64,000 nucleotides of DNA from contig JAXLTW010000004.1 in the NCBI GenBank assembly GCA_046329865.1, forward strand, positions 91,533 to 155,532, in the 5' to 3' direction. How positions within the stretch are numbered: the stretch's first letter is position 1; each line of letters opens with the position of its first letter. Both the position numbers and the translations under genes were made by a program. The stretch comes from Chitinophagales bacterium (lineage in GTDB: Bacteria > Bacteroidota > Bacteroidia > Chitinophagales > JADIYW01). The notes beneath the pieces are model-generated. The model searched no databases and had not been told where the DNA came from. It saw only the letters and a program-made list of their open reading frames with translations. This document shows, piece by piece, positions 4,890 through 58,654 of the stretch.

Positions 4890-5780
4890 TCAGCCAATTT
4901 GCGGGTACAACAGCTTCTTGCTCTTCCCTTCAAAACAAGCCGCCAGAGATGCCGTCGTGCGTTGCAAACCTACCATCAATGGACTGTCTTTGCCGTCAAT
5001 GTTTAAATCTATATTCGGAATATTTAATAGTTGTCTTTTGATTTCCGTTGTCAACTCTTGTTCATCGCTTTCTACCATGATTTCTTTCACCAAATGGTCC
5101 ACATAGGGACGATAAGGTTCCATGATGTCATCTGCCAGACAATAGGCATTGTATTTGTTGCGGTGATGAATCCCCAACGTGGGCAATAAGCCGGAAGAAA
5201 CCAGGCCGCGCGCTACGGTAGCCCGCAGGATGGCGTAGCCGTAATTCAAAAAATTGTTCGGGTATTCCCCGAAACGTTCCCGAACAAAAAACGGGTCTTC
5301 CTCATTAAAGAGCACTTTCCAGTAATAGCGGGCAGCCTGCGCTTCCTGATTGGTGCTGTCGCCGCTCAACACTAGTTGCACATAACGTTTCAGATAGCTG
5401 TTGTCTATTTCCCATTTTTCGAGCACTGCCGACTGGTTTTGTATTTTGGCTTTAATGGTTTGTTGCCACAATTGTTTTTTCAATGGTTCGGAAGCCTCAA
5501 TCTGTGCCTTGAATTTTTCGGATTGCTGGGTATGTCCGTCCAGGTTTAAAAGTAATCCGGTGGGATGATGTTTGTCATTGCAGGTAATCACAGCGGCATT
5601 GTTTTCCAGTAGCCGGTGCAATACCGCATGGGTAACAGAAACCTGATAATGGTCTATAACTACGACGCCTATATCTTCAATCGGCACAGTACGTTCCGCA
5701 TCTTCGGTTTTAATCAGCAATTGTTGCTGCTGTACCGACAGACGAGACGGATTGCCGAAATAGAGAGTGCGTTTGATCAT
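4890..5780 (-). CDS. cas1: CRISPR-associated endonuclease Cas1 (type II)
   Basis: The 296-aa product begins MIKRTLYFGNPSRLSVQQQQL, a typical type II Cas1 start. It contains NFLNYGYAILRATVARGL and MEPYRPYVD. It starts immediately after the cas9 stop. Confidence 0.93.
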   Translation of the reverse strand: MIKRTLYFGNPSRLSVQQQQLLIKTEDAERTVPIEDIGVVVIDHYQVSVTHAVLHRLLENNAAVITCNDKHHPTGLLLNLDGHTQQSEKFKAQIEASEPLKKQLWQQTIKAKIQNQSAVLEKWEIDNSYLKRYVQLVLSGDSTNQEAQAARYYWKVLFNEEDPFFVRERFGEYPNNFLNYGYAILRATVARGLVSSGLLPTLGIHHRNKYNAYCLADDIMEPYRPYVDHLVKEIMVESDEQELTTEIKRQLLNIPNIDLNIDGKDSPLMVGLQRTTASLAACFEGKSKKLLYPQIG

Positions 5781-23362: not shown

Positions 23363-24628
23363 ATGAATACTACTGTTGTTTTTTCATTAGACTATCGTAC
23401 TCCCAAGAAAGATGGCACCTGTGCTTTATTACTTAGAATTATTCATCATGGAAAACCTGCACAAATTACGACAGGGATTTATTTACATGAGAAGGATTGG
23501 GATGACAAAAAGCGTCTTATTAAGTCATCCTATAAAGGAACTGAATCAATAACCCGCCTAAATAATTACTTACAAAAACAAAAAGCCGAAGCACTTGATA
23601 TTATTACTAAACTTGCCGATAATAAAACGTTAGATTCATTTTCTGTTTATGACCTCAAAGACCTTATTAAAAAGAAATCTGACAAGGTTTCTTTTATTAA
23701 ATATACGGAAAAATTGATAGAACAGCTTAAAGAAGTAAATAGAATTGGAAATGCACGGGCTTACAAATCTGCCTTAGATGCTTTGAAATCCTTTAATAAA
23801 GATAAAGATGTATCGTTTCAGGAAATAAATCTACGGTTTTTAGAAAAGTTTGAAAGTTCCCACTTAGCCAAAGGAAATAGTTATAATAGCATTTCTGCTT
23901 ATTTACGTGCGACTAGAGCAATATATAATAAGGCTATCAAAGATGGTATTATTGAAAGAGAGCTATACCCTTTTGACAAATTTACTATTAAGAGCACCAA
24001 AACCCGTAAACGAGCAATTGGATTGGATGCTATAAGCAAAATAGAGGCTTTGAAATTTAAATCAACGGAACTCGCATTTCACGCACGAAATTATTTTTTA
24101 TTTAGCTTCTACACACGAGGTATGCCTTTTGCAGATATGGCAGAATTAAAACTTTCAAATCTTATAGATGGAAGAATATTTTATCAACGTAAAAAGACAG
24201 ATAAGCCCTATAACATTAAAATTACTGCTGAGATCAAAAGGATTTTGGATTTTTATGTAAAAGATAAAGAAAAGGATGAATACATTTTTAATATCATTAA
24301 AAGAGAATCAATTACAGATCAATATAAAGACGTTGAGTGGGCAAGAAAAAGGTATAATAAGAAACTAAAATACATTGCAGAGTTGTGTGGTATTCAAGAA
24401 AATTTAACTAGTTATGTGTCTCGTCACAGCTTTGCTACTCGAGCAAAAAATTTACAAATTCCAATAGCTGATATATCTGATATGTTAGGTCATGAGAGTA
24501 TTAAAACTACTGAAGTATATTTAGATAGTTTACCAAGTGATATTTTAGATGAATACCATAAGAAGGTAATAAACTTGAAGCTTAAAATTGTTAATTCTAA
24601 ATATAAAATACAAAAAGGGACTAATTAG
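23363..24628 (+). CDS. Site-specific tyrosine recombinase (Bacteroidota phage-integrase type)
   Basis: The C-terminal catalytic region is SRHSFATRAKNLQIPIADISDMLGHESIKTTEVYL (R...HxxR...Y). The N-terminus is Arm/SAM-like. It is adjacent to attL. Confidence 0.9.
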   Translation: MNTTVVFSLDYRTPKKDGTCALLLRIIHHGKPAQITTGIYLHEKDWDDKKRLIKSSYKGTESITRLNNYLQKQKAEALDIITKLADNKTLDSFSVYDLKDLIKKKSDKVSFIKYTEKLIEQLKEVNRIGNARAYKSALDALKSFNKDKDVSFQEINLRFLEKFESSHLAKGNSYNSISAYLRATRAIYNKAIKDGIIERELYPFDKFTIKSTKTRKRAIGLDAISKIEALKFKSTELAFHARNYFLFSFYTRGMPFADMAELKLSNLIDGRIFYQRKKTDKPYNIKITAEIKRILDFYVKDKEKDEYIFNIIKRESITDQYKDVEWARKRYNKKLKYIAELCGIQENLTSYVSRHSFATRAKNLQIPIADISDMLGHESIKTTEVYLDSLPSDILDEYHKKVINLKLKIVNSKYKIQKGTN

Positions 24629-24791
24629 TAGTTACTAAAGAACACAGAAGCAACTTTATTAAAAGGTATTTGTATTAACCATATTGCTTATAGGTTCTGT
24701 CCAGCAGTACTTGTTTCCTCTTTTCGTTGACAGCAGAATAGTAAGCACTTTTGACAGTTCCATCAACTTTATTTTGCACCAATACATACTT

Positions 24792-24820
24792 AAAAAGGAG
24801 CCTTGTGGCTCCTTTTATTT
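24792..24820. terminator. Bidirectional terminator between the integrase and lipoprotein genes
   Basis: AAAAGGAGCC-TTGT-GGCTCCTTTT hairpin. Confidence 0.65.
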
Positions 24821-24837
24821 ACATGTGTAAGGGTTGA

Positions 24838-25374
24838 TTAGTATTTTCCTGCAAATTTACCGTTAGTAATATTTACATCAGTTCCATCGGTATCATTATG
24901 TAATGTACCGCTGAATGTACCTTCAATTTCGCTCGTTGTAACTTTGGTAACTACAATAGTAAATTCACTTTCAGACGGAGTAGCTGCCCATCCCGTTGCT
25001 CCCTTAGTATAGGTAAATGTAGGCAATACAGTAGATGATGGCATAGTTTTAAAATTATATGTACCAGGGGTAATATCAGCAGGCAGTAACATCATTACAA
25101 TTTCAGACGTGAAAGTTGAGGTATTCACGTAACTGGCAGCCAAGTTAATCTCAGCGCTAGATTTCGCAATGGTACTGACTAAGTCATTCGAATTAAAATT
25201 TCCTGATGTAGCACCAGAGCACGTTAAGGACACACGGCTTTTACCCGCAGCCAAAGGTGAGGAAGAAGTAGAATCCTTTTTACAAGAATTTAAAAAGAAA
25301 ACTACAGTAGCCAACATTAAAATAATTGAAGATCTTTTCATAAATAGATATTTATTTGTTTTTAATGACATCAA
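24838..25374 (-). CDS. Island lipoprotein, paralogue A
   Basis: Lipobox FLNSC. The C-terminal motif EIEGTFSGTLHNDTDGTDVNITNGKF is shared with the neighbouring gene. The likely start is the internal MKRSSIIL. Confidence 0.65.
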   Translation of the reverse strand: MMSLKTNKYLFMKRSSIILMLATVVFFLNSCKKDSTSSSPLAAGKSRVSLTCSGATSGNFNSNDLVSTIAKSSAEINLAASYVNTSTFTSEIVMMLLPADITPGTYNFKTMPSSTVLPTFTYTKGATGWAATPSESEFTIVVTKVTTSEIEGTFSGTLHNDTDGTDVNITNGKFAGKY

Positions 25375-25439
25375 AAATAATGCACTAAATTAAATAAATA
25401 AATACCGGATTGGTGGTATATACATCTTGTTTAAAAAAA

Positions 25440-25952
25440 TTAATGAGAAAAGATTGCATAGAAATTACCATTAGTTATCGAGATTTTTGAACTGTCAGAA
25501 GAATTGATGGCTGTTCCGCTAAAAGTACCTTCAATTTCAGCATAACTAACTTTAGTAATATTTACGGTAAAATTACTTCCAGTCCCAGCATTCCATATTC
25601 TGTCGTCATATGAATAAATATTCTTTTTTAAATATTTAAAACTTATATTGGGTGCACCTAGGTCATTTAAGTGGTATGTACCTGCTGTGATAGTAACCGG
25701 AATCAAAAGTGATGCATCTTCGCGGGTAGAAGTAGAATTATTTATATAAACTGCATCCAGCACCATCGAAGTAGAATTATAAGCACTAAAGCTGTACCCA
25801 TCATCTGATTTATAATTTCCAGATAATGCACCACCAATAGAACAAGATATTCTGCAACGACCCGGAAGCAGAACAGTATTCTGGTTTTTCTCTTTAGTAC
25901 AGCCGGAAATTAAAAGCATAGTTATTGTCGCAAAGAATAATAATTTTTTCAT
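25440..25952 (-). CDS. Island lipoprotein, paralogue B
   Basis: Lipobox LISGC. It contains EIEGTFSGTAINSSDSSKISITNGNF. Confidence 0.65.
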   Translation of the reverse strand: MKKLLFFATITMLLISGCTKEKNQNTVLLPGRCRISCSIGGALSGNYKSDDGYSFSAYNSTSMVLDAVYINNSTSTREDASLLIPVTITAGTYHLNDLGAPNISFKYLKKNIYSYDDRIWNAGTGSNFTVNITKVSYAEIEGTFSGTAINSSDSSKISITNGNFYAIFSH

Positions 25953-26265
25953 AGTTTAATTAATTACATCTCAAATTTAAAAATAATTATCAGATTTCAG
26001 ATTGACTAATGATAATAAGCGTAGTAGTTTATTTAAACAATAAAAAAGCATTGTAATTCAAATACAATTAAGTTTTTACTAACCCCCTTATTTATTAGAA
26101 TCATTTTATATTTAATAAGTATTAAATAAACTAAGGAAATGTTTTCTATCAATTATAATAGGCAATTAATATCAGAAACATAAAAAAATAATCTTTTGCA
26201 TACTAAATATCGCAATTTGGGTATAATTTTGGGATAAATTTTAGATACATTTAATTATATTAATT

Positions 26266-28623
26266 ATGAAGACTCATATCGAATATAACCGCTTTTATGT
26301 TATTGTATTTTTTATATATTTAATATCATCACAACACCTCTTGCTTGCACAGGTTTACCAAATTAAAGATAAGACAAAATATTATGTTGCGTCTGATAAC
26401 TTTGGAGCCGCTACCCAATACAACCTGATCTTAGATAAGAAAGGCTACGAAACAGTAGCTAAATCATTAGGAGTCTCAAAAGAGGATGCTAAAAAAATAA
26501 TAGAACAATGTAGTGCCAACTATCAACCCAAAATGAAGAGAGGTAATGATTATGGATATATCATGTATAAGATTTGTGAAGTTAAAATACCATTGGAGAG
26601 CGATCACTTTTATGGAGAAGTGATGTACTTAATGTACTTTCCCAATGACATCAACTCGCACCTGCCGCCGGATAAACTTGCCGCTAACGGAAAAGGATTT
26701 TTCCAATTAGAATTTCCCCAGCGTGTATCCACTACTCCTTACAAAAATGAAACGTATAAACCGCAAACAAACAGCAAAAATGATAATTATTCATTTGGTT
26801 TCGTTTTTAAATCTAATACAATAGACTCTATAGTTGTAGAAAAGGTCATCAATACCAGCCAAGCCAAAACGGCAGGGCTTCAGGCCGGGGATATCATCGT
26901 ATCTGTAAATGACGTCAATTTAAGATATTACGACAGGCTAAAAGCCCTGGAATTATTTAAAAATTGTGGATTTACGAATAATAAATTTAAGATAATTCGT
27001 AAGGACAAAGAAGTTATCCTCAATATTGATAAAGTAAATACAAACGTTTTACAAACCGTTTGCATAACTGGCAATTGCGATAATGGCGATTGTTCGTTTG
27101 AAAATATTAATGGGTATACGATTCAAGGCAAATGTATGAATGGAATATTACAGGGCAAAGTAAAATTTATAACAAAAGAAGGTGTAGTCTTTTATGAAGG
27201 CGAAATATATAAATACCCTGGAATAGAAAATAATTATAGATATAAAGGCTATGGTATTGAAAAATATACAAACGGTGATAAATACGAAGGCCAATTTCAA
27301 AATGGTAAAAGAGATGGCAATGGTATATATACTAAAGCTAACGGGGAAATACTTAAAGGATATTGGCGCGAAGGCAAATATTATGATGAAATTGCAAAAG
27401 GATTCGACCTGGAGAAAATTAAGACGTTTAATGCAACAAGGTACTACCTGTACGAACAAGAACTTGGCTTCCTGAAAAATGCCAATCAAGTTACGTTTAG
27501 CGATTCATCCGTAACTGAATTTAAAAAGAACAATGGCTTAACGGACACAGAATTTGACAAATTAATAAAACTTTGTGACTTCCAATACAAACCCCAAAAC
27601 TTGAACACTCCCGAAAAAGTTAAAACACTTGTAAATGATAATCAGGAAAAATATCCTTATACCATCTATTCATTGGGTACACTAAAAGCTGTAGACGGCA
27701 AATATTACATGATCATTAGGATGCCGGAAGACGAAAATAGATGGTTACCGGAAGCCATGCACTTTACAGAAGATAATTCATTATTTTTTATCGCACCGTA
27801 TTCTGAAATTAGATCCATAGACTATGTTAGATACATAGACTACAAGAAGCAAAAAGAAGGTGCTGAATTTTGGAAAAAAGCGGAGGAAAAAAATGATGCA
27901 GCCTTATCCGAATATTTTAATCAACATGAAAAAAATCAATATCTGGGAATTGCTATCTATCAATTCTCGTTTTGGAATTATCAAAAAAATGATTTGGATT
28001 ACAATTATGCATTCGTAAGCGTTTCGGGTGCACCCGGACAAAAACTGTCAAATGCAGACTACAATGCTATGGACAAGCTGGCAGGAGTGGAGGGCAAATC
28101 GAAGATTAAAAGAGAATATAAAGAAGGTATGGACGAATCGAAAGCGGAGGAATATGTATTTAATCTAACACGCACACACCGGTTTAGCATTACACAAAGA
28201 TATAATTATCGTATACCGCCAAACAGCAATACTGCCGGCAAATATCCTGCATCCTCTTATTCAAAAGAAGAAATCGAAGGTATTGACAAGCAACTTAATG
28301 ATGCTTATACTTCCGCCAAGTTGCTCACAAATGAAATGGCAGAAGATAAAACGGTTGAGAAAGCAGAGTTAAGGAAAAAAATTGCGCAAAATATTTTATC
28401 AACAAATGGTGATGTAGTGAATGAACCTGCTAAAGTAGTCATTACAGATGTGTCCACCTCTGATAAATATTATAACGATACTAAAAAATTTATCGGCAAA
28501 ACGGGAAATGTAGAAGGAACACTGCTTCAAGACACGGATGGTACTTACTATGGGATGATAAAATTTGAAGGAGAAAAATCTTCTACGATATTTTATAAAG
28601 TAAAAGTAAAAATTATTAATTAA
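26266..28623 (+). CDS. Large secreted or membrane-anchored protein with PDZ and MORN repeats
   Basis: The N-terminus is hydrophobic. A PDZ-like segment reads TAGLQAGDIIVSVNDVNL. MORN-type repeats are YEGEIYK, YKGYGIEKYTNGDKYEGQFQNGKRDGNGIYTKANGEILKGYW. An N-terminal module is internally duplicated at about aa 390-520. Confidence 0.65.
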   Translation: MKTHIEYNRFYVIVFFIYLISSQHLLLAQVYQIKDKTKYYVASDNFGAATQYNLILDKKGYETVAKSLGVSKEDAKKIIEQCSANYQPKMKRGNDYGYIMYKICEVKIPLESDHFYGEVMYLMYFPNDINSHLPPDKLAANGKGFFQLEFPQRVSTTPYKNETYKPQTNSKNDNYSFGFVFKSNTIDSIVVEKVINTSQAKTAGLQAGDIIVSVNDVNLRYYDRLKALELFKNCGFTNNKFKIIRKDKEVILNIDKVNTNVLQTVCITGNCDNGDCSFENINGYTIQGKCMNGILQGKVKFITKEGVVFYEGEIYKYPGIENNYRYKGYGIEKYTNGDKYEGQFQNGKRDGNGIYTKANGEILKGYWREGKYYDEIAKGFDLEKIKTFNATRYYLYEQELGFLKNANQVTFSDSSVTEFKKNNGLTDTEFDKLIKLCDFQYKPQNLNTPEKVKTLVNDNQEKYPYTIYSLGTLKAVDGKYYMIIRMPEDENRWLPEAMHFTEDNSLFFIAPYSEIRSIDYVRYIDYKKQKEGAEFWKKAEEKNDAALSEYFNQHEKNQYLGIAIYQFSFWNYQKNDLDYNYAFVSVSGAPGQKLSNADYNAMDKLAGVEGKSKIKREYKEGMDESKAEEYVFNLTRTHRFSITQRYNYRIPPNSNTAGKYPASSYSKEEIEGIDKQLNDAYTSAKLLTNEMAEDKTVEKAELRKKIAQNILSTNGDVVNEPAKVVITDVSTSDKYYNDTKKFIGKTGNVEGTLLQDTDGTYYGMIKFEGEKSSTIFYKVKVKIIN

Positions 28624-28732
28624 TGTATACCTTACAAAATTAGTGTAGCACAAAATAAATTTATTAATTTATATGATATGTTGCTATATTTAAAAATTCT
28701 TATCATTGGTAAAGATAGAATTTAACATTTCA

Positions 28733-29005
28733 TTAGGCGTTTTCTTGTAAATATTCTTCAATAGATTTACGGTCATATAATATAATCTTCCTACCTATGT
28801 TAGTAAATCGCACTTTCCCATTATTTCTCAAATGCATCAATGTGGTGTCACTTGAAATGTTTAATTTCTTTTTTGCTTCCTCTGGTGTAATCCAAAGTTC
28901 CTCTTTCCCTTTTAAGTCGTGTGTTTCTTTAATGTACAACACCACCCGGTCTATTAATTTCTCAAAAGCAGGGTTGTCTAAGCAGATTATTTCATTAGTT
29001 ATCAT
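28733..29005 (-). CDS. Excisionase-family / HTH DNA-binding protein
   Basis: The 90-aa product contains LWITPEEAKKKLNISSDTTLMHLRNNGKVRFTNIGRKIILYDRKSIEEYL (HTH_17-like). It sits at the island end opposite the integrase. Confidence 0.7.
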   Translation of the reverse strand: MITNEIICLDNPAFEKLIDRVVLYIKETHDLKGKEELWITPEEAKKKLNISSDTTLMHLRNNGKVRFTNIGRKIILYDRKSIEEYLQENA

Positions 29006-29067
29006 GGTAGAAGAAAGATACGAAATAATTGTAAAATCTAATAAGTGACTCTATGGGCTACCAGTCT

Positions 29068-29087
29068 TTTACTTGCGAAATACTTGC
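29068..29087 (+). promoter_or_regulatory. 20-bp repeat TTTACTTGCGAAATACTTGC, copy 2
   Basis: Identical to 23311-23330. It lies between the excisionase gene start and attR. Confidence 0.5.
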
Positions 29088-29091
29088 AATA

Positions 29092-29126
29092 AAATAAAAA
29101 AGCACTTAGTTTTTAACCTAAGTGCT
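29092..29126 (-). terminator. Island-encoded terminator for the reconstituted tRNA-Val
   Basis: AGCACTTAG-TTTTTAAC-CTAAGTGCT hairpin, with a T-run on the minus strand immediately 3' of the tRNA. Confidence 0.6.
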
Positions 29127-29134
29127 TGATTATG

Positions 29135-29212
29135 TGGTGGGCGCACACGGGTTCGAACCGCGGACCCCCTGCTTGTAAGGCAGATGCTCTGAACCAGCTG
29201 AGCTATGCGCCC
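29135..29212 (-). tRNA. tRNA-Val (anticodon TAC), CCA encoded
   Basis: The reverse complement is GGGCGCATAGCTCAGCTGGTTCAGAGCATCTGCCTTACAAGCAGGGGGTCCGCGGTTCGAACCCGTGTGCGCCCACCA. It has a 7-bp acceptor stem, a GCTC/GAGC D-stem, the anticodon loop CTTACAA and a GTTCGAA T-loop. Confidence 0.92.
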
Positions 29213-29320: not shown

Positions 29321-30484
29321 ATGAATTTCTATCAGCATAGAAACCGATGGAAAATACTTCTTTTCCTCTTTGCCGTGAGTATCATATTTTTCACCTTATG
29401 GTATACGCACCGTCTTGCCAAGTCGATAGCAAGAGAGGAGATAAAAAAAGCGGAAGAAATTGCAGAGGCCTATAAGGTGCTGAGCAGCAATACATCAGAT
29501 GAAATTGAATTGTCCAAAGCGCTGGATAAGATAAAGTTTAATGACAATATTCCGGTTATCTGGACAAATGCTAGTGATGAAATACTGGCTCATAAGAATT
29601 TCGACTCTACTAAAGTAGCGAAGGACAAAAATTATTTAATCCGGCAATTAAAGACACTCAAAACCATCCGGCAATTTATAGAAATTGATTTGCCCGACAG
29701 CGAACGGCAATATTTATACTACAAAGATTCTGACCTGCTCATCGGTATTCGAAAATATCCGTTTTATGTTTTGGCATTGGTTGCCCTGTTTTTTATCATC
29801 AGTTATGCGGCCTTCACATCTTCCAGAAGGGCCGAACAGAATCAGGTATGGGTAGGGCTTGCCAAAGAAACGGCGCATCAGTTAGGCACGCCATTGTCTT
29901 CCCTTTCAGCCTGGATAGATATTCTGCGGGAAAAACTAAATTCGGAAGAGGATGAGATGATGTTTGAAGAGATGCAGAAGGATATAGACAGACTGGTGTT
30001 GATTGCGGAACGATTTTCTAAAATCGGTTCCGTTCCGGAATTGCAGCGCCATCGTGTTACGGATGTATTGCAGCATGGGGTGGATTATATTTCCAAACGC
30101 GCATCTAAAAAAATAAGTATCTATCTGTTGAAATCCAATGAAAATATCATTGCGATGCTAAACCCGCCGCTCTTTGAATGGGTGCTAGAAAATGTGATGA
30201 AAAATGCGCTGGACGCTATGGAGGAATCTGGTGAAATTCATATTCATGCTTATGAAAAAGACGGATTGGTGAACATTGATATTCAGGATACGGGAAAAGG
30301 AATTGCCAAAAACAGTTTTGAACAGATTTTTGAACCCGGTTTCAGTACCAAAAAAAGAGGCTGGGGACTGGGTTTGACGCTTGCACGAAGAATTATTGAA
30401 GAATATCATCATGGAAAAATTTTTGTGAAGGATTCATCTTCCAAAGGAACCACTTTTCGCATCATCCTGAAAGCAGAGGCTTAG
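29321..30484 (+). CDS. Sensor histidine kinase (orphan, no adjacent response regulator)
   Basis: Two TM segments, the H-box ETAHQLGTPLSSL, and HATPase_c motifs NALDAM, DTGKGI and GWGLGL. Confidence 0.85.
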   Translation: MNFYQHRNRWKILLFLFAVSIIFFTLWYTHRLAKSIAREEIKKAEEIAEAYKVLSSNTSDEIELSKALDKIKFNDNIPVIWTNASDEILAHKNFDSTKVAKDKNYLIRQLKTLKTIRQFIEIDLPDSERQYLYYKDSDLLIGIRKYPFYVLALVALFFIISYAAFTSSRRAEQNQVWVGLAKETAHQLGTPLSSLSAWIDILREKLNSEEDEMMFEEMQKDIDRLVLIAERFSKIGSVPELQRHRVTDVLQHGVDYISKRASKKISIYLLKSNENIIAMLNPPLFEWVLENVMKNALDAMEESGEIHIHAYEKDGLVNIDIQDTGKGIAKNSFEQIFEPGFSTKKRGWGLGLTLARRIIEEYHHGKIFVKDSSSKGTTFRIILKAEA

Positions 30485-30566: not shown

Positions 30567-31697
30567 ATGAACGTATATTTTGATAATGCCGCCACTACAC
30601 CGATTGATGAGGAAGTATTGGAGGCTATGATGCCTTATCTGAAAGAACACTTCGGCAATCCGTCAACGCAATATTCCTTTGGCCGCGATACAAGAGCAGC
30701 CGTGGAAGAGGCGCGTAAAACCGTTGCACAGCTCATCAATGCCCAGCCATCTGAAATTATTTTTACCTCCGGTGCCACCGAAGCCAATAATATGGCTATA
30801 AAAGGTGCGGTGATGTATCTGGGGGTAGAACGTATCATTACTTCACCCATTGAGCACCATTGTGTGGAGTATTCGGTAGATTTCTGCAGAGACCATCTTC
30901 AAACAGAGGTGTCGATGGTTAAGATAGATGACCGGGGAAATGTGGATTTGGATGATTTGAACCGTTTACTGGCCGGTTCTTCCAAAAAGACACTGGTCAC
31001 CTTAATGCACGCTAATAATGAAATAGGCACTTTGCTGGAAATTGAAAAGGTCGGTGCGATGTGCAGGCAATACCATGCGCTGTTTCATTCGGATACGGTA
31101 CAGACATTCGCCCATTTACCAATAGATGTTCAGAAAATGCAGGTAGATTTTATAACAGGGGCGGCACATAAATTTCACGGACCGAAAGGCGCCGGTTTTT
31201 TGTTTATGAGAAAACAAAATAAGGTGCAATCCCTCATTCATGGAGGCGGGCAGGAGCGTGGCTTTCGCGCCGGAACCGAGAATGTATATGGAATTGTAGG
31301 ATTGGCGGCTGCTGCAAAAAAAGCGTATGCCCATCTTGAACAGGATGCAGCCTACATTAAAAGTATTAAGGATTATTTTATCGACCAGTTGAAACTGAAC
31401 TTCCGGGATATCGATTTTAATGGTAATATCGATGACAGAAGTTTGTATACGGTGTTGAACGTTTCGTTTCCGCCCAATGATAAATCCGCATTGTTGTTAT
31501 TTACATTGGATATGGAAGGTATCTGTTGCAGTGGCGGCAGTGCCTGTGGCAGCGGCGCATCTGCCGGTTCCCATGTGGTGAGGGCGCTGCATAAAGATGA
31601 GAACAGGGTGTCCATCCGTTTTTCCTTCTCAAAACATAATACGAAAGAAGAAGTGGATTATGTGGTAAGTAAACTGAAACAAATCTATTCTATTTAA
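30567..31697 (+). CDS. Cysteine desulfurase family protein (NifS/IscS-like, class V aminotransferase)
   Basis: YFDNAATTP, SGATEANN, the PLP-lysine context AHKFHGPKG and the active-site loop SGGSACGSG. Confidence 0.85.
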   Translation: MNVYFDNAATTPIDEEVLEAMMPYLKEHFGNPSTQYSFGRDTRAAVEEARKTVAQLINAQPSEIIFTSGATEANNMAIKGAVMYLGVERIITSPIEHHCVEYSVDFCRDHLQTEVSMVKIDDRGNVDLDDLNRLLAGSSKKTLVTLMHANNEIGTLLEIEKVGAMCRQYHALFHSDTVQTFAHLPIDVQKMQVDFITGAAHKFHGPKGAGFLFMRKQNKVQSLIHGGGQERGFRAGTENVYGIVGLAAAAKKAYAHLEQDAAYIKSIKDYFIDQLKLNFRDIDFNGNIDDRSLYTVLNVSFPPNDKSALLLFTLDMEGICCSGGSACGSGASAGSHVVRALHKDENRVSIRFSFSKHNTKEEVDYVVSKLKQIYSI

Positions 31698-31706
31698 TAT
31701 CGAGAA

Positions 31707-32594
31707 TCAGCATTGTGCTGTAACCAGGCTGCTGATGATTAAATCACTTACATCTATTTGATTGGATGCATGAGGAATGGTATTACAGGTGACCACATTG
31801 CCGACACCCGAATTCAACAGATCCTGGTATGCATTTCCAGAGAATAATCCGTGCACTCCTATACAGACAACGGGTTTTAATCCGGCTTCCTTTAAATGAC
31901 CGGCTGTAACAATCATGGTTTTTGCAGTAGAAATGATATCATCAATCAAGACCGGGGTATATTCTTTATATTGGTCAACATTCGGAACAGCAATATGTAC
32001 TTCTGTATCGCTGATTCTTGTTTTGTTTAAGACAATATAAGGGGTATTCATCTTTTCAGCCGTTTTAGCCACCCATTGTTCACTTTCACTGTCGGGGCCA
32101 ACCAACAATGGTCGCTCGATGTTTTTATTTACCCAGGCGGAGATGAGTGAAGTGGCATGTAAAACTTTGCAGGGAATTGAATAGATTTCGGACATTGAGC
32201 TGCGTCGATGCAAATGCGGGTCTATGGTAATCAATTCATCTATAAATGCTGATAGCAGCGAAGCAAAATAAGCGCTTGTCACCGCTTCTCCCGGGTGAAA
32301 CTGCTTATCCTGCCGCATGTAAGCAAGATAGGGCGTCACTAATGTAATTTTCAGCGCACCTTCCTCTTTGAGCAATTTAGATAAAAAGAAAAGAGGTATA
32401 AATTTTCTGTCAGGATGAAAAAGGGAGTCAATTAATATTATTTCCTTGTTGCGTACATCCGTAAGTAAGCGAACATAGGTTTCGCTATCCGGAAATGTGT
32501 GCAGTGTCATTTCTCCGATTGGGATGTGTAACTTTTGCGAAATGGTTTTCGCGATAGTTTCATTACCCGGAAAATAAAATAGGATTCGTTCCAT
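31707..32594 (-). CDS. Ribose-phosphate pyrophosphokinase (PRPP synthetase)-like protein
   Basis: HTFPDSETYVRL, VTPYLAYMRQDK and the PRPP-binding loop VLIDDIISTAKT. The start overlaps the upstream stop (TAATG). Confidence 0.75.
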   Translation of the reverse strand: MERILFYFPGNETIAKTISQKLHIPIGEMTLHTFPDSETYVRLLTDVRNKEIILIDSLFHPDRKFIPLFFLSKLLKEEGALKITLVTPYLAYMRQDKQFHPGEAVTSAYFASLLSAFIDELITIDPHLHRRSSMSEIYSIPCKVLHATSLISAWVNKNIERPLLVGPDSESEQWVAKTAEKMNTPYIVLNKTRISDTEVHIAVPNVDQYKEYTPVLIDDIISTAKTMIVTAGHLKEAGLKPVVCIGVHGLFSGNAYQDLLNSGVGNVVTCNTIPHASNQIDVSDLIISSLVTAQC

Positions 32595-34078
32595 TATTCA
32601 AAAGTAATCAGATGATTGATGGTCTTGACATATTCTTTCACATATTCCAGTTGCCCTTTTCCTTCCGCATATATGGAATACAGGACATCGCCTTTCATGA
32701 CGGACTTTCCGATCGGTGCGTTAAAAAGTATGCCGGCACCCGGAGATTTTGGTGCGCCGGCGAGTTTAGCGATACGGGCCAATTTCCGAATGTCAATTTC
32801 TTTTACAATGCCATCTTGCTCTGCGGTCACATCAAAAGTGTATTCACCTTTTTCCGGAATGGAGAATCTTCCCTGTGCCAGGCAGATGGCTTTCAGTTTT
32901 TGAAAGGCTTTTCCGGAGGTAATGATTTCTTCCGCCAGCTTCTTTCCATCTCCGGCATCACATTTTTTTGCGAGTTCCAGCAATCTTCCGGCCAGGGAAG
33001 TGGCACGGTCTCTCAGGTCTTTCGGAGCACCGGCTTCGTTATTTAAAACACTCAGTACATCCAATGCTTCTAAAGCAGGACCGATGCCTTTTCCAACCGG
33101 TTGAGAGCCATCGGTTATCATGACGGTTATGTTCAGTCCTATCGCTTCTCCCACTGCTTCAAAATAATATTTCATTTTCAAGGCATCTTCATGCGAACGG
33201 ACTTTAGCGGTCTTTCCAAATGGAATATCAATGATAACATGGGTGGAACCGGCAGCTGCTTTTTTGGACAAAACGGATGCTATCATTTGCGGTTCACTGT
33301 CTATATCCAGTGCCTTTTCCACATAAATCAACAGATCATCAGCAGGGCTTAATTTTACCTCACCGCCCCATACCAGACAGGCATTTTCTTTTTTGACCAC
33401 TTCTTTTATTTCTTCAATGGAAAGATTGACATTGGTGATGGTTTCCATCATATCGGAAGTGCCCGCAGGGGAAGTGATGGCTTTAGAAGATGTTTTAGGG
33501 ATAATCAGTCCGGCAGCAGCAGCAATGCTCACTACAATAGGAGTTGTACGGTTGCCGGGTACACCACCCACACAGTGTTTGTCATAAATTTCTGGTTGCT
33601 CCCATTTGATTTGTTGCCCTGCCTGTATCATGGATTTTGTCAGGTAGACCATTTCCTGCAGGTTCATATTGTTGCCGGCGCAGGCAGTAACGAAAGCCGC
33701 CAGTTCTATATTGGAGTATAGTCCATTTACAACGTCTGCAATAATTTCGTTGTAGGCGGCTTCAGTCAGTTCTTTGCCATAAATTTTTGCTCTTACATAA
33801 CTCAATGAGTTGATAGGCTGAAGATGTTTTACGACAATCGTGTCACCTTCCTGCACATTCAGCCTGTTCATCGCTTCTTCAGATAGCCCCGCTTCGCCTT
33901 CCTGGAGCAGGTTGGTATGGACGGTGTTGAGTGTTGCAATGATCTTTGAACCGTTGAAATGTACAAATACCCTGGTCAATACCTTAAACCCCTCAGAGTG
34001 TGTAAGCGGAGAATCTTCCCTGATATATAGGGTGTTTTCGTGGGATGCGTGTATGCCGATATTTCTTAAACGGAACAT
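32594..34078 (-). CDS. Thymidine phosphorylase family protein, long AMP-phosphorylase-like form (494 aa)
   Basis: DKHCVGGVPGNRTTPIVV, TSPAGTSDMMET and an N-terminal extension of roughly 90 aa relative to classical DeoA. Confidence 0.75.
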   Translation of the reverse strand: MFRLRNIGIHASHENTLYIREDSPLTHSEGFKVLTRVFVHFNGSKIIATLNTVHTNLLQEGEAGLSEEAMNRLNVQEGDTIVVKHLQPINSLSYVRAKIYGKELTEAAYNEIIADVVNGLYSNIELAAFVTACAGNNMNLQEMVYLTKSMIQAGQQIKWEQPEIYDKHCVGGVPGNRTTPIVVSIAAAAGLIIPKTSSKAITSPAGTSDMMETITNVNLSIEEIKEVVKKENACLVWGGEVKLSPADDLLIYVEKALDIDSEPQMIASVLSKKAAAGSTHVIIDIPFGKTAKVRSHEDALKMKYYFEAVGEAIGLNITVMITDGSQPVGKGIGPALEALDVLSVLNNEAGAPKDLRDRATSLAGRLLELAKKCDAGDGKKLAEEIITSGKAFQKLKAICLAQGRFSIPEKGEYTFDVTAEQDGIVKEIDIRKLARIAKLAGAPKSPGAGILFNAPIGKSVMKGDVLYSIYAEGKGQLEYVKEYVKTINHLITFE

Positions 34079-34079
34079 T

Positions 34080-34946
34080 TTATTTGATTAATGAATCATG
34101 GTGGTTGTTTGCTGCCAGCTGACAAAGCTGATTACCTTCATCATAAACAGCTTTAAGTCTGGCTTCTTTTACTCCGGCGCTTCGAAGTATATTTTCATCG
34201 CGATAGATTTCCCGGACGAGAATATAATTCTTTTCCATCAGGTTCTGTTTTTCGGTTCTGGTCAGAGAGGTAAGGCAGGTGAGCGGATATGAACCAGTTT
34301 TGTCTATGATGTCTTTCAGGGAATTGTTTTTTGGATAGTTCCAGCTCAGCATGTACATCTTCTTACACATTCCGTAGGCAAGCGCGTCATCGGTGAACTT
34401 TGTATTTGTAGCTATCCAGCCGATAAATTTGCTGGTATCATCTTTGATCAATCCATTATCGAGTACATCCTGAAACCGGGCAAAAATATAGAGCGGAGTT
34501 TTTACATCTACAGAAAATCCGGACTGATTGCGGTATTTGCATTCAACGTAGACAATGGTGTTGTCTTTTTCCGCGACCACATCAATCTCATGTGAAACGC
34601 ATTTCCCTTGTACAATTTTACCCACCTCTGCGCGGTATCCTTGTTTTTTAAAAAGTTCGGCTATAAAACGTTCAAAGGGAAAGCCGGTTGGGCCAAATTC
34701 CATCAGGCCTCTCTTCAGGTAATAGCGTGCAGCCTTGGTTTTGGATTGGCTGCGTAGCAGCTTAAATGCCTCACTATAAATTTTTTTAGTGGTGATACCC
34801 TCGTATAAAGTCGGCAGCAAGGTATCTGTAATGGTCTTAATTTCTTCTTCCGTCGCGTGGGCGCGGGACAATGAGTTTATTAATTTCTCCAATGAAAACG
34901 CTTCACTCTCGCCGGATGCTTTGGTTACGTATATTTTATCTTTCAT
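34080..34946 (-). CDS. ATP-cone domain protein fused to an Mrr-like PD-(D/E)xK nuclease-fold domain
   Basis: The N-terminal ATP-cone is IYVTKASGESEAFSLEKLINSL...KIYSEAFKLL. The nuclease-like core is FERFIAELFKKQGY...HEIDVVAEKDNTIVYVECKY. Confidence 0.65.
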   Translation of the reverse strand: MKDKIYVTKASGESEAFSLEKLINSLSRAHATEEEIKTITDTLLPTLYEGITTKKIYSEAFKLLRSQSKTKAARYYLKRGLMEFGPTGFPFERFIAELFKKQGYRAEVGKIVQGKCVSHEIDVVAEKDNTIVYVECKYRNQSGFSVDVKTPLYIFARFQDVLDNGLIKDDTSKFIGWIATNTKFTDDALAYGMCKKMYMLSWNYPKNNSLKDIIDKTGSYPLTCLTSLTRTEKQNLMEKNYILVREIYRDENILRSAGVKEARLKAVYDEGNQLCQLAANNHHDSLIK

Positions 34947-34954
34947 TCCTGATG

Positions 34955-35458
34955 TTAATCTATTGATTCAAACAATCCCAGTTCCTTATTTTTTCGAACG
35001 TTATTCCAATGAAAATATTTTCCGTTCATGGAGATATAGATTCCTAACGGCAATGTCTGAACAAATGCAAGCGCTGCCCCCAGATTGAATAATCCGTCAG
35101 AACTGCCAAATTTATAAGGTATCATGGCGCCTGTCAGTACAACTGTTTTATCGGTAATCACGGCAGCCAGCAGTTTAGCGGTTTCCACCATTGTATCCGT
35201 TCCGTGTGTAATGACAATCTTATCTTCCTCACAGTGCATACAATTATGAGCGATGATATTACGGTCTTCGTTTGTCATTTCCAGGCTGTCAATCATCATT
35301 AATGTCCGGATATTGACATCCAGTTTGCATCTTCCGAGTTCCAGCATTTCGGGAAGGTGGGTGTCTTCAAAGAACAGCTTTCCGTTGAGTTCATTGTATT
35401 CTTTGTCGAATGTACCGCCGGTGATAAATAATCGTATCTGCATAGGTTTAATCTTCAA
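34955..35458 (-). CDS. Asparaginase N-terminal-domain-only protein (167 aa)
   Basis: TGGTFDK (catalytic Thr motif) and ITHGTDTM. Confidence 0.65.
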   Translation of the reverse strand: MKIKPMQIRLFITGGTFDKEYNELNGKLFFEDTHLPEMLELGRCKLDVNIRTLMMIDSLEMTNEDRNIIAHNCMHCEEDKIVITHGTDTMVETAKLLAAVITDKTVVLTGAMIPYKFGSSDGLFNLGAALAFVQTLPLGIYISMNGKYFHWNNVRKNKELGLFESID

Positions 35459-36011
35459 CTACTAATGTTTTTGGAATGGAATCATGCCAGAAAATCCCGG
35501 AAGTGAACAGGCCGCTGACATATTCAAATGGGATGATTCTGCAAAATGATCTTACCAGGCACTGACCGAAACTCAATTCTGTTCCATCTCCTGAAATCAC
35601 TTTGGTTCGGGTGAAAAATTTACCAATGGTTTTGCCAAATTTATATTCCAGTAAGGCATAGTAAAGAGGAAATGTAATCAGAAACAACATCTGTATCGTT
35701 TCGTTTTCTGTCATGATGAAGGTATATCCCCAATAATTTATCAGGAATATGATCAACAGGATGATGGCGATAACACAGATGATGTCTATCATGTAATTCA
35801 TAAATCGTTTGGATAAAGGCGCTGTTACAAAGGTTTGTTTTTCTACCAGATCCAGCAGTTCAGATTCATTGGTCAGTTCAAATTCTTTTTTCACCTTGAA
35901 GCCGGTATCGTATTCACTGACATGCCCGCAATTCAGGCACCTGACCTGCGTTTGGGAAAATTGCTCGTACAATGTATTGCCACAGGATGAACAAATGAAG
36001 GAGGAGTGCAT
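35448..36011 (-). CDS. Zinc-ribbon plus RDD-family membrane protein
   Basis: The N-terminus has CSSCGN...CLNCGH. It is followed by multi-TM RDD-like segments RFMNYMIDIICVIAIILLII and YALLEYKFGKTIGK. Confidence 0.6.
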   Translation of the reverse strand: MHSSFICSSCGNTLYEQFSQTQVRCLNCGHVSEYDTGFKVKKEFELTNESELLDLVEKQTFVTAPLSKRFMNYMIDIICVIAIILLIIFLINYWGYTFIMTENETIQMLFLITFPLYYALLEYKFGKTIGKFFTRTKVISGDGTELSFGQCLVRSFCRIIPFEYVSGLFTSGIFWHDSIPKTLVVED

Positions 36012-36045: not shown

Positions 36046-37041
36046 TTACAATTCTAAAATAAATTTCAGGGTATCTACATTGTCGGCATAATCATTTAAC
36101 CCCGGCTGCTGGCTTTTTCCAAAAGGTAAATAGCCTTTACCGACCACACATTGAATCTGGTCCTTTTCAGCCATGATAGCATCATTCACTGCTTCAATGG
36201 TCTCATACCGTTCCAAATGCAGGCAGGAAATCGGGGAGTGCAGACTCTTGTTTTCTACAATGTTGATGAAATCAATATCTGTTAACGGGGTTTGGTTCAT
36301 CAGGTACAAAGTCCGCTGATAATCCAGGTTGTTCATATACTGATTGTGCTCCATTAAGTGGCTGAAATCAGCTAAGCCTTCTTTTAGTTGATTGAGGTCA
36401 TAGGCTTTTGGCACAAAAATTTTCGATACATTCCGGCATCCGAGACCGAAATAATCAAAAATATCGGCACCTAAGTCCTTTAGTTCTTCCTTTGCCTCAT
36501 TTCCCGACAAGATAGCGATGGAATTTCGGTTTCTGCGGATGATGTTTTTATATTTCCCAAAATAATATTCGAAGTGTTTAGCGGCATTGTTGCTTCCTGT
36601 GGCAATAATGGCGTCAAAATTTTCCAGTTTTGGCTGTATGGAAATAAAATCCTTGAATCCGGGCTCGATTTCTATCAGTTTTTCTAACAGGTGAGGTAAT
36701 AGAAACCGATCTTTGTCGGATAATTTAAGCTGTAATTTATTTCCCGATACCAAAACACATAAAATATCATGAAAAGCAACCATGGGAATATTACCAGCCG
36801 CTACAATGGCAATTGTTTTGGGTAATTGATTTGAAAAATCATATCCGGAAACCCATTTTTCCAGTTTTTCTTTTTCCAGAAATTCAGTGGCTATATTTTC
36901 TAACGCCTTTTTAGTGTTTTCTTTGGTGAACCAGGTGTTGTGTATATAGGTTTTCTGTATTGTCTCCTGTAAGGTTTCAGGGTATGCTTTGATATAATTT
37001 CCCAGTTGGACAAGTGCCTGTATGCGGGTTTCTGTATTCAT
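36046..37041 (-). CDS. Acyl-CoA reductase (LuxC-like) family protein
   Basis: My overall resemblance call rests on length, IAIVAAGNIPMVAFHD and GLGCRNVSKIFVP. The same family commonly sits next to a ferredoxin gene in Bacteroidota. Confidence 0.55.
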   Translation of the reverse strand: MNTETRIQALVQLGNYIKAYPETLQETIQKTYIHNTWFTKENTKKALENIATEFLEKEKLEKWVSGYDFSNQLPKTIAIVAAGNIPMVAFHDILCVLVSGNKLQLKLSDKDRFLLPHLLEKLIEIEPGFKDFISIQPKLENFDAIIATGSNNAAKHFEYYFGKYKNIIRRNRNSIAILSGNEAKEELKDLGADIFDYFGLGCRNVSKIFVPKAYDLNQLKEGLADFSHLMEHNQYMNNLDYQRTLYLMNQTPLTDIDFINIVENKSLHSPISCLHLERYETIEAVNDAIMAEKDQIQCVVGKGYLPFGKSQQPGLNDYADNVDTLKFILEL

Positions 37042-57997: not shown

Positions 57998-58654
57998 ATG
58001 CATTTTTCCCCCGAAATAAAATATAATATCGATGAACTGGAGCGGATTATTTCCAGAGGGGAAGGTGTGCAGCTGGATTTCAAACAAGCCATTACCAGTC
58101 AACGTAAGATAGCACGGACACTTGCTGCATTCGCCAACAACAGAGGCGGGAAGTTACTGATAGGAGTGAAGGATAACGGCATGTTGATGGGCTGCGATAC
58201 GGAAGAGGAAATGGATATGATTCATGAAGCGGCCGAACATTTTTGCGAGCCACCGGTAGATGTGGTCTTTTCGATATATGAAACGGATGATTCGCTCACC
58301 ATATTAGAGGTAGATGTCAATAATAGTTTAAGAAAACCACATTTCGCCCAGGACGATCATGGCAAATGGCAGCTGTATATGAGAAGCAGTGACAAAACAA
58401 TGCTGGCATCTAAAAATACACAGCGGATGCTGGAAGTGGAAGATGGAGAGGAGGTGGACACTACATCTCTGGATTCTAAAGAACGGTTTATACTGGATTA
58501 TCTGAAAATCAGACAGACCATTACCGCTAAAATACTGGCACAGCAACTGAACATTTCACTCCAGCGGGCAAATATGATGCTGGTTAAACTGACTAAGCTC
58601 GGATTAATTCTGTATAACAAGGATGAACGCGGAGCATATTATTTATTACGATAA
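57998..58654 (+). CDS. AlbA_2 (Schlafen-like) DNA-binding domain protein with C-terminal winged HTH
   Basis: GEGVQLDFKQAI...LAAFANNRGGKLLIGVKDNG, followed by a C-terminal HTH-like ITAKILAQQLNISLQRANMMLVKL. Confidence 0.6.
   Translation: MHFSPEIKYNIDELERIISRGEGVQLDFKQAITSQRKIARTLAAFANNRGGKLLIGVKDNGMLMGCDTEEEMDMIHEAAEHFCEPPVDVVFSIYETDDSLTILEVDVNNSLRKPHFAQDDHGKWQLYMRSSDKTMLASKNTQRMLEVEDGEEVDTTSLDSKERFILDYLKIRQTITAKILAQQLNISLQRANMMLVKLTKLGLILYNKDERGAYYLLR

Follow-up and report, generated by a model that had tools for sequence, protein, structure and literature searches.

Phosphorolysis that strips the base from a nucleotide and saves the ribose as a bisphosphate or as phosphoribosyl pyrophosphate (PRPP) has so far been established in archaea only. 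The AMP phosphorylase of Thermococcus kodakarensis (TkAMPpase) cleaves all nucleoside monophosphates (NMPs) and deoxynucleoside monophosphates (dNMPs) into the free base and ribose-1,5-bisphosphate (R15P) (PMC8376864, PMC9700705), and its 84 N-terminal amino acids make up a multimerisation domain (PMC8376864). The role of PhnN is to convert R15P to PRPP (PMC9700705). In the PD-(D/E)xK protein AF1548 of Archaeoglobus fulgidus, residues D38, E51 and K53 have been predicted to be catalytic (PMC1821046, PMC1874628). Relatives of TkAMPpase and of AF1548 are encoded next to each other in a 64,000-nt stretch of contig JAXLTW010000004.1 from a Chitinophagales bacterium, hereafter called the window. 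They lie in a run of minus-strand genes that a first-pass annotation had presented as a tightly coupled five-gene operon and a candidate uncharacterised system. This run is a mosaic, in which a LuxC-RDD-asparaginase block (unit A) abuts a 3.3-kb block of ATP-cone, thymidine phosphorylase (TP)-like and PRPP synthetase (PRS)-like genes (unit B, 34946-31707) that is present or absent independently. Unit B is best read as a pared-down version of a widespread module, mobile by horizontal transfer, with the composition [ATP-cone nuclease]-beta-CASP RNase-TP-like-PRS-like. The initial remark that no named pathway or defence system corresponds to these genes agrees with what we found, as none was met in PADLOC or in the literature searched.

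The five open reading frames (ORFs) of the first annotation were all recovered at the coordinates it had given, and Pfam and NCBIfam profiles uphold the domain calls made for them. Another gene, located 34 nt upstream of the RDD gene, is the first of the co-directional run, and a convergent gene follows its other end:

36046..37041, minus strand, LuxC-like acyl-CoA reductase family gene (PF05893, 3.4e-08), the sixth co-directional gene
35448-36011, minus strand, RDD gene
34955-35458, minus strand, asparaginase N-domain ORF at its mechanical maximum, from TTG 35458
34955..35443, minus strand, short-chain L-asparaginase (scASNase) from its likely ATG start, according to homologue lengths and gene calls
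34080-34946, minus strand, ATP-cone/Mrr gene
32594-34078, minus strand, TP-like gene
31707-32594, minus strand, PRS-like gene, its start overlapping the TP stop
30567..31697, plus strand, convergent class-V aminotransferase gene, NifS/cysteine-desulfurase-like (PF00266, 1.6e-79)

Three of the junctions reported for the run can be read off the minus strand as they had been described: 8 nt between the asparaginase and ATP-cone genes, 1 nt between the ATP-cone and TP genes, and a TAATG overlap between TP and PRS. The fourth, an 11-nt overlap of the RDD and asparaginase genes, does not stand, as it arises only if the asparaginase starts at the TTG at 35458. Because most of the asparaginase homologues listed have 161-164 amino acids and gene callers assign 162 to identical metagenome contigs, the ATG at 35443 is the likely start, and the gap to the RDD gene is then 4 nt.

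The conservation of the run was studied with the ATP-cone/nuclease protein as the anchor. A scan of one genome per species provided at least 578 loci encoding this protein, and the 80 best-scoring of them, nearly all from Bacteroidota and with 46-87% identity to it, were compared with the window proteins by tblastn. The RDD and asparaginase genes accompany the ATP-cone gene in only four of these loci (L001-L003 and L005) and are lacking in the other 76. All four belong to close Chitinophagales/Sphingobacteriales relatives, in which the flanking Fdx, LuxC, NifS-like and histidine-kinase genes are found as well. TP-PRS is found downstream on the same strand in 21 of the 80 loci. The neighbourhood survey proposed with the first annotation thus speaks against co-occurrence across phyla, since the five genes are together only in very close Chitinophagales relatives. 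Three relatives in which the asparaginase is 83% identical (L084-L086) have the order Fdx(-), LuxC, RDD, asparaginase, directly followed by convergent NifS-like and kinase genes. The NifS-like stop is 8 nt from the asparaginase stop, and no ATP-cone, TP or PRS gene is present in between. Alignment with blastn, carried out for the window against L084 and L005, shows homology with L084 skipping from 34968 to 31663, and positions 34946-31707 of the window have no counterpart there. In L005 (9600-10842), the RDD-asparaginase pair is followed by a 400-nt spacer, the ATP-cone gene alone and then the convergent NifS-like gene.

Since L005 holds the ATP-cone gene alone, this gene and TP-PRS can be gained or lost separately at exactly this site. 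The mosaic reading is based on this locus, on the three relatives that have unit A and lack the 3.3-kb block, and on more distant lineages, in which scASNase genes have unrelated neighbours (an AsnA-like gene, for example, or one for an unknown 240-aa protein). On its right-hand side the block, whether inserted or retained, ends at the NifS-like gene; insertion here and loss in relatives both fit the available relatives. The tight spacing observed in one genome is accordingly no sign of a five-component system, and the claim that the five genes form one conserved system has to be abandoned: the RDD and short asparaginase genes are bystanders from a local syntenic block.

The surroundings of the ATP-cone gene in other genomes place unit B in a larger context. 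Neighbours were counted in the 68 loci with a usable downstream flank and the 71 with a usable upstream flank, and the ORFs of the 80 loci were clustered de novo. The most frequent immediate same-strand neighbours are a beta-CASP metallo-beta-lactamase (MBL; 21 downstream, 7 upstream) and a P-type ATPase of the Ca/Mg type (10 downstream, 9 upstream), and TP holds this position downstream in 4 loci. The gaps between the ATP-cone gene and its downstream neighbour, mostly of -37 to +33 nt, suggest translational coupling. The beta-CASP protein has about 459 amino acids and contains Lactamase_B, Beta-Casp and RMMBL (RNA specificity) domains. The set of four genes (ATP-cone, MBL, TP, PRS) is full in L081 and L082, and its members are adjacent or nearly so in six other loci (L048, L049, L061, L075, L079 and L080). 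The three-gene form without MBL is seen again in L056 and L001-L003. On the Pontibacter actiniarum plasmid NZ_CP021236 the genes for a 2-hydroxyacid dehydrogenase, ATP-cone protein, MBL, TP and PRS are contiguous. On a plasmid of Criblamydia sequanensis (Chlamydiota), ATP-cone/MBL/TP/PRS again form a contiguous set, preceded by the genes for CusA, a P-type ATPase, phosphoketolase and GlgP and followed by that for acetate kinase. Plasmids of Ralstonia, Celeribacter, Sphingomonas and Bradyrhizobium bear overlapping MBL/TP/PRS or TP/PRS/MBL triads. These proteobacterial triads adjoin genes for P-type ATPases, universal stress proteins (USPs), Hsp20 and Mla and have no ATP-cone gene.

The loci of the ATP-cone gene also have other recurrent components. 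These comprise enzymes and stress proteins (tandem USPs, D-2-hydroxyacid dehydrogenase, phosphoenolpyruvate synthase, phosphofructokinase (PFK)), regulators (ArsR, PAS kinase, receiver-Crp) and transporters or metal-related proteins (Mla-type ABC, Cus RND, VIT1, multicopper oxidase), and the fermentation genes for phosphoketolase and acetate kinase are among the module neighbours. The module, beta-CASP RNase included, is conserved from phylum to phylum, and it sits in stress, low-oxygen and metal islands. A search of the window shows that its own copy has three of the four module genes, the beta-CASP gene being the missing one. In loci without TP-PRS, a 179-aa P-loop kinase-like protein of the AAA_28 type (NadR-RNK/dNK-like) is repeatedly encoded after the ATP-cone or beta-CASP genes (L058, L062, L063, L047, L069 and L070; for example at 12258-12797 of L063), and it may be an alternative partner for handling nucleotides or nucleosides.

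The ATP-cone protein consists of an ATP-cone (residues ~1-80), a PD-(D/E)xK core (~88-200) and an AF1548-like C-terminal helical domain (~205-280). Its match to the ATP-cone profile PF03477 is marginal (26.0 bits for a cutoff of 25.8), that to Mrr_cat PF04471 has 28.8 bits for a cutoff of 21, and the family profile aligns with AF1548 (1Y88) over residues 93-275 (4e-35). Within a set of 18 relatives with 52-73% identity to the window protein, the cone residues K9, G12, E15 and K21 and the nuclease residues H119, E120, D122, E135, C136 and K137 are invariant. K9, E15 and K21 align with the residues of the same type and number in Escherichia coli NrdA, and D122, E135 and K137 with D38, E51 and K53 of AF1548. 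The HEIDV...ECK motif pointed out in the first-pass annotation is thus real and conserved, and the loss of catalytic residues that would have told against its proposal is not seen. The D...(D/E)xK triad and the C-terminal domain make the protein a member of the AF1548-like PD-(D/E)xK proteins; the marginal profile score and the conserved N-terminal Lys, Glu and Lys assign it to the ATP-cones, with nucleotide binding as a prediction only. The AlphaFold (AF2) model (pLDDT 87.1, pTM 0.82) shows the cone region as a beta-hairpin with helices. A Foldseek search with it found 1Y88 first (5.6e-15, TM 0.78), then MspJI, Can2, Cdn1, NucS/EndoMS and Hjc, while the ATP-cone of NrdR matched the N-terminal part at rank 47. 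The protein has 2251 homologues, which make up a uniform family of 270-295 amino acids with 561 clusters at 50% identity and E <=1e-30. We interpret it as an AF1548-like nuclease predicted to be gated by adenine nucleotides. No functional study or description of this ATP-cone/nuclease fusion was found in the literature searched. A search for informative (Rosetta-stone) fusions among its relatives retrieved only unannotated extensions and one basic extension, in P0365 of the representative library (512 aa), whose 235 additional N-terminal residues resemble the chlamydial histone-H1-like protein Hc2 and hint at an association with the nucleoid or with nucleic acids.

The TP-like protein has Glycos_trans_3N, Glycos_transf_3 and PYNP_C domains and scores well above the cutoffs of NF003338 (654.6 bits for 434) and TIGR02645 (587.1 bits for 434.6). 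Its 492.4 bits for the AMP_phos equivalog TIGR03327 are below the cutoff of 535. It is of the long form, with an N-terminal extension of about 90 residues before Glycos_trans_3N begins at residue 94. The best match in the Protein Data Bank (PDB) is TkAMPpase 4GA5 (3.2e-102, ~48% identity, residues 52-479), and the alignment starts at query residue 52 and chain residue 48. The protein can be placed in the AMP/NMP-phosphorylase clade of the long thymidine phosphorylases, and cleavage of NMPs is the activity predicted for it. A gene fusion points in the same direction. On the Variovorax sp. SRS16 plasmid NZ_LR594669 (L083, 6242-8395), a 717-aa protein annotated as PhnN combines a guanylate-kinase-like N-terminus with a TP-clade C-terminus, 43% identical to the window protein, and its gene adjoins nadC. 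On the Cupriavidus pauculus plasmid NZ_CP033971 (hit H20), a similar match to TP is annotated as PhnN, a likeness at the level of annotation only. Such a PhnN::TP fusion, in the manner of a Rosetta stone, would link the TP clade to R15P and PRPP and supports the NMP-phosphorolysis model for the TP step; no discussion of this link was found in the literature searched.

The PRS-like protein contains the Pribosyltran_N, Pribosyltran and Pribosyl_synth domains, surpasses the family cutoffs of NF005537 (381.9 bits for 322) and TIGR01251 (210.2 bits for 113) and has Methanocaldococcus jannaschii Prs (1U9Y, 4.1e-46) as its best PDB match. Its sequence assigns it to the PRK07199 subfamily of PRPP-synthetase paralogues, which are archaeal class-III-like. 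RQDK, DPHLHR and the KxR flexible loop are all kept. The ribose-5-phosphate (R5P) loop is DDIISTAKT in the window (residues 218-226, ~31917-31943) and follows the pattern DDIISTA[K/R/Q/H]T in 19 of 20 family members linked to TP-like genes, where M. jannaschii Prs has DDIISTGGT. The residue at the second loop position, typically basic in this subfamily, might signal a different phosphorylated substrate. The substrate of Prs is R5P and not R15P. No functional study of the PRK07199 paralogues was found in the literature searched.

Taken together, it is on balance probable that the run is a lineage-specific juxtaposition of unit A and a truncated module, linked to energy stress, for converting RNA or nucleotides to ribose-bisphosphate and PRPP. 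When the energy charge falls, the ATP-cone would read the adenine-nucleotide pool and gate the PD-(D/E)xK nuclease, which would free 5'-NMPs from RNA or another nucleic acid, jointly with the beta-CASP RNase in copies that have one. The TP-like enzyme would then phosphorolyse these NMPs, AMP included, to the free base and R15P, and the PRS-like enzyme would tie the ribose-phosphate pool to PRPP, bases and ribose being re-used or sent to central metabolism. The net effect would be to buffer the adenylate pool and to recycle nucleotides in hypoxia or dormancy. A route from NMP phosphorolysis through R15P to PRPP under the control of an ATP-cone regulator had already been put forward for all five genes. 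For the three-gene sub-module it is supported by the relationship to 4GA5, the PhnN::TP fusions and the association with beta-CASP genes across phyla, but not for the five-gene set. A more ambitious version would make the ATP-cone-switched nuclease, the first of its kind, together with the beta-CASP RNase, the NMP phosphorylase and the PRS of altered loop, an undescribed bacterial pathway from RNA through NMP and R15P to PRPP/R5P. Bacteria would use this pathway in hypoxia or when short of energy, and it would correspond to the pentose-bisphosphate route of archaea, with plasmids as the vehicle of its spread in Bacteroidota, Chlamydiota and Proteobacteria. In it the PRS paralogue might act on R15P-derived PRPP or produce it. 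We consider this version rather doubtful.

The connection with oxygen comes from Proteobacteria. In Bradyrhizobium diazoefficiens, bll3117 (TP), bll3116 (PRS) and bll3115 (MBL) are induced by microoxia in transcript and protein (PMC6515984) and constitute one FixK2-dependent operon, which has a FixK2 box at -74 and is listed with phosphoketolase/acetate kinase (PMC9104804). The lxa locus of Burkholderia cenocepacia contains genes for a metal-dependent RNase, a cation ATPase, USPs, CRP regulators and ABC transport (PMC3721108). On account of the microoxia and FixK2 data for the bll operon and of the lxa-like gene families, the module is placed in an oxygen/energy-stress rather than a defence context. 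As to transcription in the window, unit B lacks the space for a promoter of its own in the 8-nt gap and is probably reached by read-through from unit A, or else by transcription starting at a promoter within the asparaginase gene. A scan for sigma-70 promoters and terminators found promoter-like sites to be no commoner than in shuffled sequences. The Bacteroidetes -7 motif (TAnnTTTG) has 6 matches in the region for 1.8 expected by shuffling, all of them consensus matches only, and they include these two:

37106-37099, minus strand, -7 element TACTTTTG, 65 nt upstream of the LuxC-like start, a consensus match only
35114-35107, minus strand, -7 element (TAnnTTTG) within the asparaginase gene, 168 nt before the ATP-cone start, a consensus match only

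The second element might serve the nucleotide module as an internal promoter.

Several observations weigh against an energy-stress module acting on nucleotides. The data show the gene content, its conservation, coupling and homology, and the oxygen regulation of the proteobacterial triad; the mechanism is an inference at every step, from the ligand bound by the cone and all the catalytic activities to the flux direction and the regulation in Bacteroidota. Induction by low oxygen is documented only for the proteobacterial triad, which lacks the ATP-cone gene. In the window, the FNR/FixK-type box TTGAT-N4-ATCAA has 5 matches for ~7 expected, none of them near the operon, and the de novo search upstream of module genes in the 80 loci (Bacteroidota) gave no convincing shared palindrome or 7-mer. 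Relatives of MBL, USP or P-type ATPase are absent from the whole 64 kb, and of the recurrent stress-island families the window has none, save for a weak histidine-kinase match. A diphosphokinase beside an R15P producer fits awkwardly with the use of R5P by Prs, and no domain of R15P isomerase (IF-2B) or RuBisCO was detected in the window ORFs of >=150 aa; the scan of recurrent neighbour families for the same two domains was likewise negative. Finally, the choice of the 80 best-scoring among at least 578 loci leans towards close relatives, and the comparison of relatives accommodates both an insertion of the 3.3-kb block here and its loss elsewhere.

Other explanations can be proposed for the same genes. 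The TP family is glycosyltransferase family 3 and has the same fold as the PRPP-using TrpD. One possibility is that the module is anabolic: the PRS paralogue would make PRPP and the TP-like enzyme would act as a phosphoribosyltransferase, building a nucleotide or nucleotide-like compound under stress from PRPP and a base or other acceptor, or an NMP from a base and R15P. The TP-like protein does match anthranilate phosphoribosyltransferase weakly (TIGR01245, 6.9e-13; 9UCW, 7e-10), the tight coupling of PRS and TP, whose genes overlap in all phyla, suits a product-substrate relation through PRPP, and the PhnN::TP fusion beside nadC would fit PRPP made for a transferase equally well. We nevertheless find an anabolic role unlikely, as the similarity to NMP phosphorylase (3e-102, ~48% identity) is far above that to TrpD, and the two predicted nucleases alongside, the beta-CASP RNase and the PD-(D/E)xK protein, better fit a degradative supply of NMPs. 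It has about the same low probability that the ATP-cone protein is a nucleotide-sensing DNA-binding regulator like NrdR, or a nuclease of DNA repair or recombination, which would regulate stress genes nearby or act alongside them and would feed no NMPs to the TP-like enzyme. An ATP-cone joined to a nucleic-acid-binding module follows the logic of NrdR, whose cone is among the structural matches, NucS/EndoMS and Hjc are structural neighbours and the Hc2-like extension of P0365 would agree with such a function. Moreover, in most loci the gene's commonest partners (beta-CASP hydrolase, P-type ATPase) are not accompanied by TP-PRS. Yet a D-E-K triad that is invariant throughout the family points to catalysis rather than binding alone, and translational coupling to a beta-CASP hydrolase with an RNA-specificity domain suggests a common substrate.

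A role in defence had also been suggested, as a nucleotide-depleting stress or anti-phage module. The ATP-cone would sense shifts in dNTP or ATP caused by a phage and free the nuclease, while TP and PRS would deplete nucleotides, leading to abortive infection. The combination of a sensor with a PD-(D/E)xK effector resembles Can2/Card1 and Cap4, a likeness reflected in Foldseek and in a PADLOC-DB v2 scan of the six proteins, which gave only weak domain-level matches of the nuclease core to CARF_PDDEXK and ZorD, and the module is mobile and plasmid-borne. In that scan, however, no system matches TP, PRS, RDD or asparaginase, and no relatives of the ATP-cone protein were found in the viral contigs of IMG/VR. 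The genes that recur around the module belong to stress responses and metabolism (USPs, fermentation enzymes, metal transporters, Crp-type regulators) rather than to defence, oxygen controls the proteobacterial triad by way of FixK2, and an identity of 46-87% across Bacteroidota with a uniform architecture in 561 clusters is atypical of defence genes. The CRISPR-Cas9 locus of the window is more than 20 kb away. Membership in a defence system is therefore not supported, and we judge the anti-phage explanation very improbable. The same or slightly less can be said for one dedicated pathway formed by all five or six genes, for example a membrane-linked asparagine deamidation or ammonia release coupled to nucleotide metabolism. 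Gaps as short as 4, 8 and 1 nt, and an overlap, imply that the genes are co-transcribed in this genome, and the order is identical in four near-identical metagenome contigs and in L001-L003. Nevertheless, this hypothesis is largely refuted by the missing co-occurrence, namely by the relatives that retain LuxC-RDD-asparaginase without the nucleotide genes, by the 76 ATP-cone loci without RDD and asparaginase and by the unrelated neighbours of scASNase genes elsewhere, and it deserves hardly any credence.

If the energy-stress reading is true, several bacterial phyla carry a mobile, oxygen- or energy-responsive module that phosphorolyses RNA or nucleotides and saves the ribose as bisphosphate or PRPP. 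This would give a role to the AF1548-like ATP-cone nucleases with their 561 clusters, to the bacterial proteins annotated as 'thymidine phosphorylase family proteins' and to the PRK07199 Prs paralogues. It would also account for genes that recur in expression lists of microoxia and dormancy, and it would widen the known targets of ATP-cone regulation.

Unit A can be described apart from the module. The RDD protein, a membrane protein of that family (PF06271, 3.7e-16), shows in its translation an N-terminal CxxC...CxxC arrangement with cysteine pairs at residues 7/10 and 25/28, and its match to a zinc-ribbon hidden Markov model falls below the cutoff. The asparaginase (PF00710, 7.8e-26) has RrA (8UOO, 2.2e-35) as its best PDB match, aligned end to end. 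In this alignment it keeps the threonine of TGGT, K19, Y21 and HGTDT, and with a single N-domain of the ~160-185 aa usual for the RrA family it belongs there. The enzyme of Rhodospirillum rubrum, RrA, is the prototype of the cytoplasmic short-chain L-asparaginases, a family present in ~7% of bacterial species (PMC10949315). The first-pass annotation rightly recognised an asparaginase N-domain with TGGT and HGTDT motifs, but the protein is no stand-alone orphan: by its sequence it is an ordinary RrA-type cytoplasmic short-chain enzyme. It is strongly conserved within Chitinophagales (75-91% identity). The order Fdx(-)/LuxC/RDD/Asn is found again in L084-L086, L001-L003 and L005, and the RDD gene adjoins the asparaginase gene even in relatives without the ATP-cone/TP/PRS block. 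The LuxC-like, RDD and scASNase genes are a conserved local block of this Chitinophagales clade, outside the nucleotide module.

The remaining large ORFs of the window are ordinary chromosomal genes, and a few other features can be mentioned. A type II CRISPR-Cas system has an array at 274-2636 with at least 26 units, a period of ~76 nt and a repeat of ~47 nt (GTTGTGAATTGATTTTAAATTGTGTTCTTTATATACTAATTTCAAC). A low-GC segment (~0.32) extends over ~23363-29212, between a tyrosine integrase and a tRNA-Val:

3473-4258, IS3-family transposase, between the CRISPR array and the cas genes
4890-5780, minus strand, Cas1, CRISPR-Cas locus
5782-11049, minus strand, Cas9 of 1755 aa, unusually long, with HNH_4 and RuvC_III, CRISPR-Cas locus
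23363-24628, tyrosine integrase with Arm-DNA-bind_5 and Phage_integrase
29135-29212, minus strand, tRNA-Val, at the edge of the low-GC segment

Within the low-GC segment are an HTH_17 excisionase-like gene (28733-29005) and genes for a 785-aa PDZ/MORN protein and two DUF6252 proteins. On the NifS side of the operon, just past the histidine-kinase gene (29321-30484), the segment has the appearance of a small element integrated at tRNA-Val. Two further genes, for an RNase R homologue with RNB, CSD2 and S1 domains (53164-55179, plus strand) and for a small Schlafen AlbA_2-domain protein (57998-58654, plus strand), are not linked to the operon.

The components of the run can finally be compared with the systems to which they are closest. 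Full-length resemblance to the RrA-type scASNases (8UOO series; PMC10949315) leaves nothing unusual about the 162-aa asparaginase, apart from the adjacency of its gene to nucleotide genes, which is lineage-specific. The nuclease core and the C-terminal helical domain of the ATP-cone protein are homologous to those of A. fulgidus AF1548 (1Y88; AF1548-like_C PF22357), a structural-genomics protein known from its structure alone which has no N-terminal ATP-cone. The 80 N-terminal residues match PF03477 in the same way as the regulatory cones of class I/III ribonucleotide reductases and NrdR. Here, however, the cone is fused to a PD-(D/E)xK nuclease instead of a reductase or a zinc-ribbon repressor, and the position of R10 in NrdA is occupied by Ala. 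Can2/Card1, Cap4 and Cdn1, also found with Foldseek, are likewise small nucleotide-binding sensors fused to PD-(D/E)xK nucleases, but the sensor of the window protein is an ATP-cone and not a CARF or SAVED domain, its gene has no cyclase or CRISPR partner and its context is not one of defence.

With respect to gene order, the Bradyrhizobium bll3117-bll3115 operon, whose genes figure only in expression tables, has the TP-like and PRS-like families in the same tight order as the window. It includes the beta-CASP MBL and no ATP-cone nuclease, whereas the window has the ATP-cone nuclease and no MBL. The lxa locus and the DosR regulon of Mycobacterium tuberculosis share USPs, a cation P-type ATPase, a metal-dependent RNase, PFK, Crp-type regulators and Mla-like ABC transporters with the loci of the ATP-cone relatives; the window's own surroundings differ from these islands in being devoid of such families. 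In E. coli, PhnN leads from R15P to PRPP, and the fusions show the TP clade working with a PRPP-forming R15P kinase, but the window encodes a paralogue of the Prs-fold diphosphokinase and not a P-loop kinase of the PhnN type. The closest solved relative of the TP-like protein, the AMP/NMP phosphorylase of T. kodakarensis (TK0352/0353; 4GA4-4GA6), has the same long N-terminal extension, and the same chemistry, from NMP and Pi to base and R15P, would be expected. In contrast to the archaeal pentose-bisphosphate pathway, the partner in the window is a PRS paralogue (accompanied by a beta-CASP RNase elsewhere), and R15P would go to PRPP/R5P rather than to ribulose-1,5-bisphosphate. The ATP-cone, TP and PRS genes are best regarded as members of a real, widespread and uncharacterised module, whose closest characterised analogue is this archaeal NMP-phosphorylase/pentose-bisphosphate pathway.

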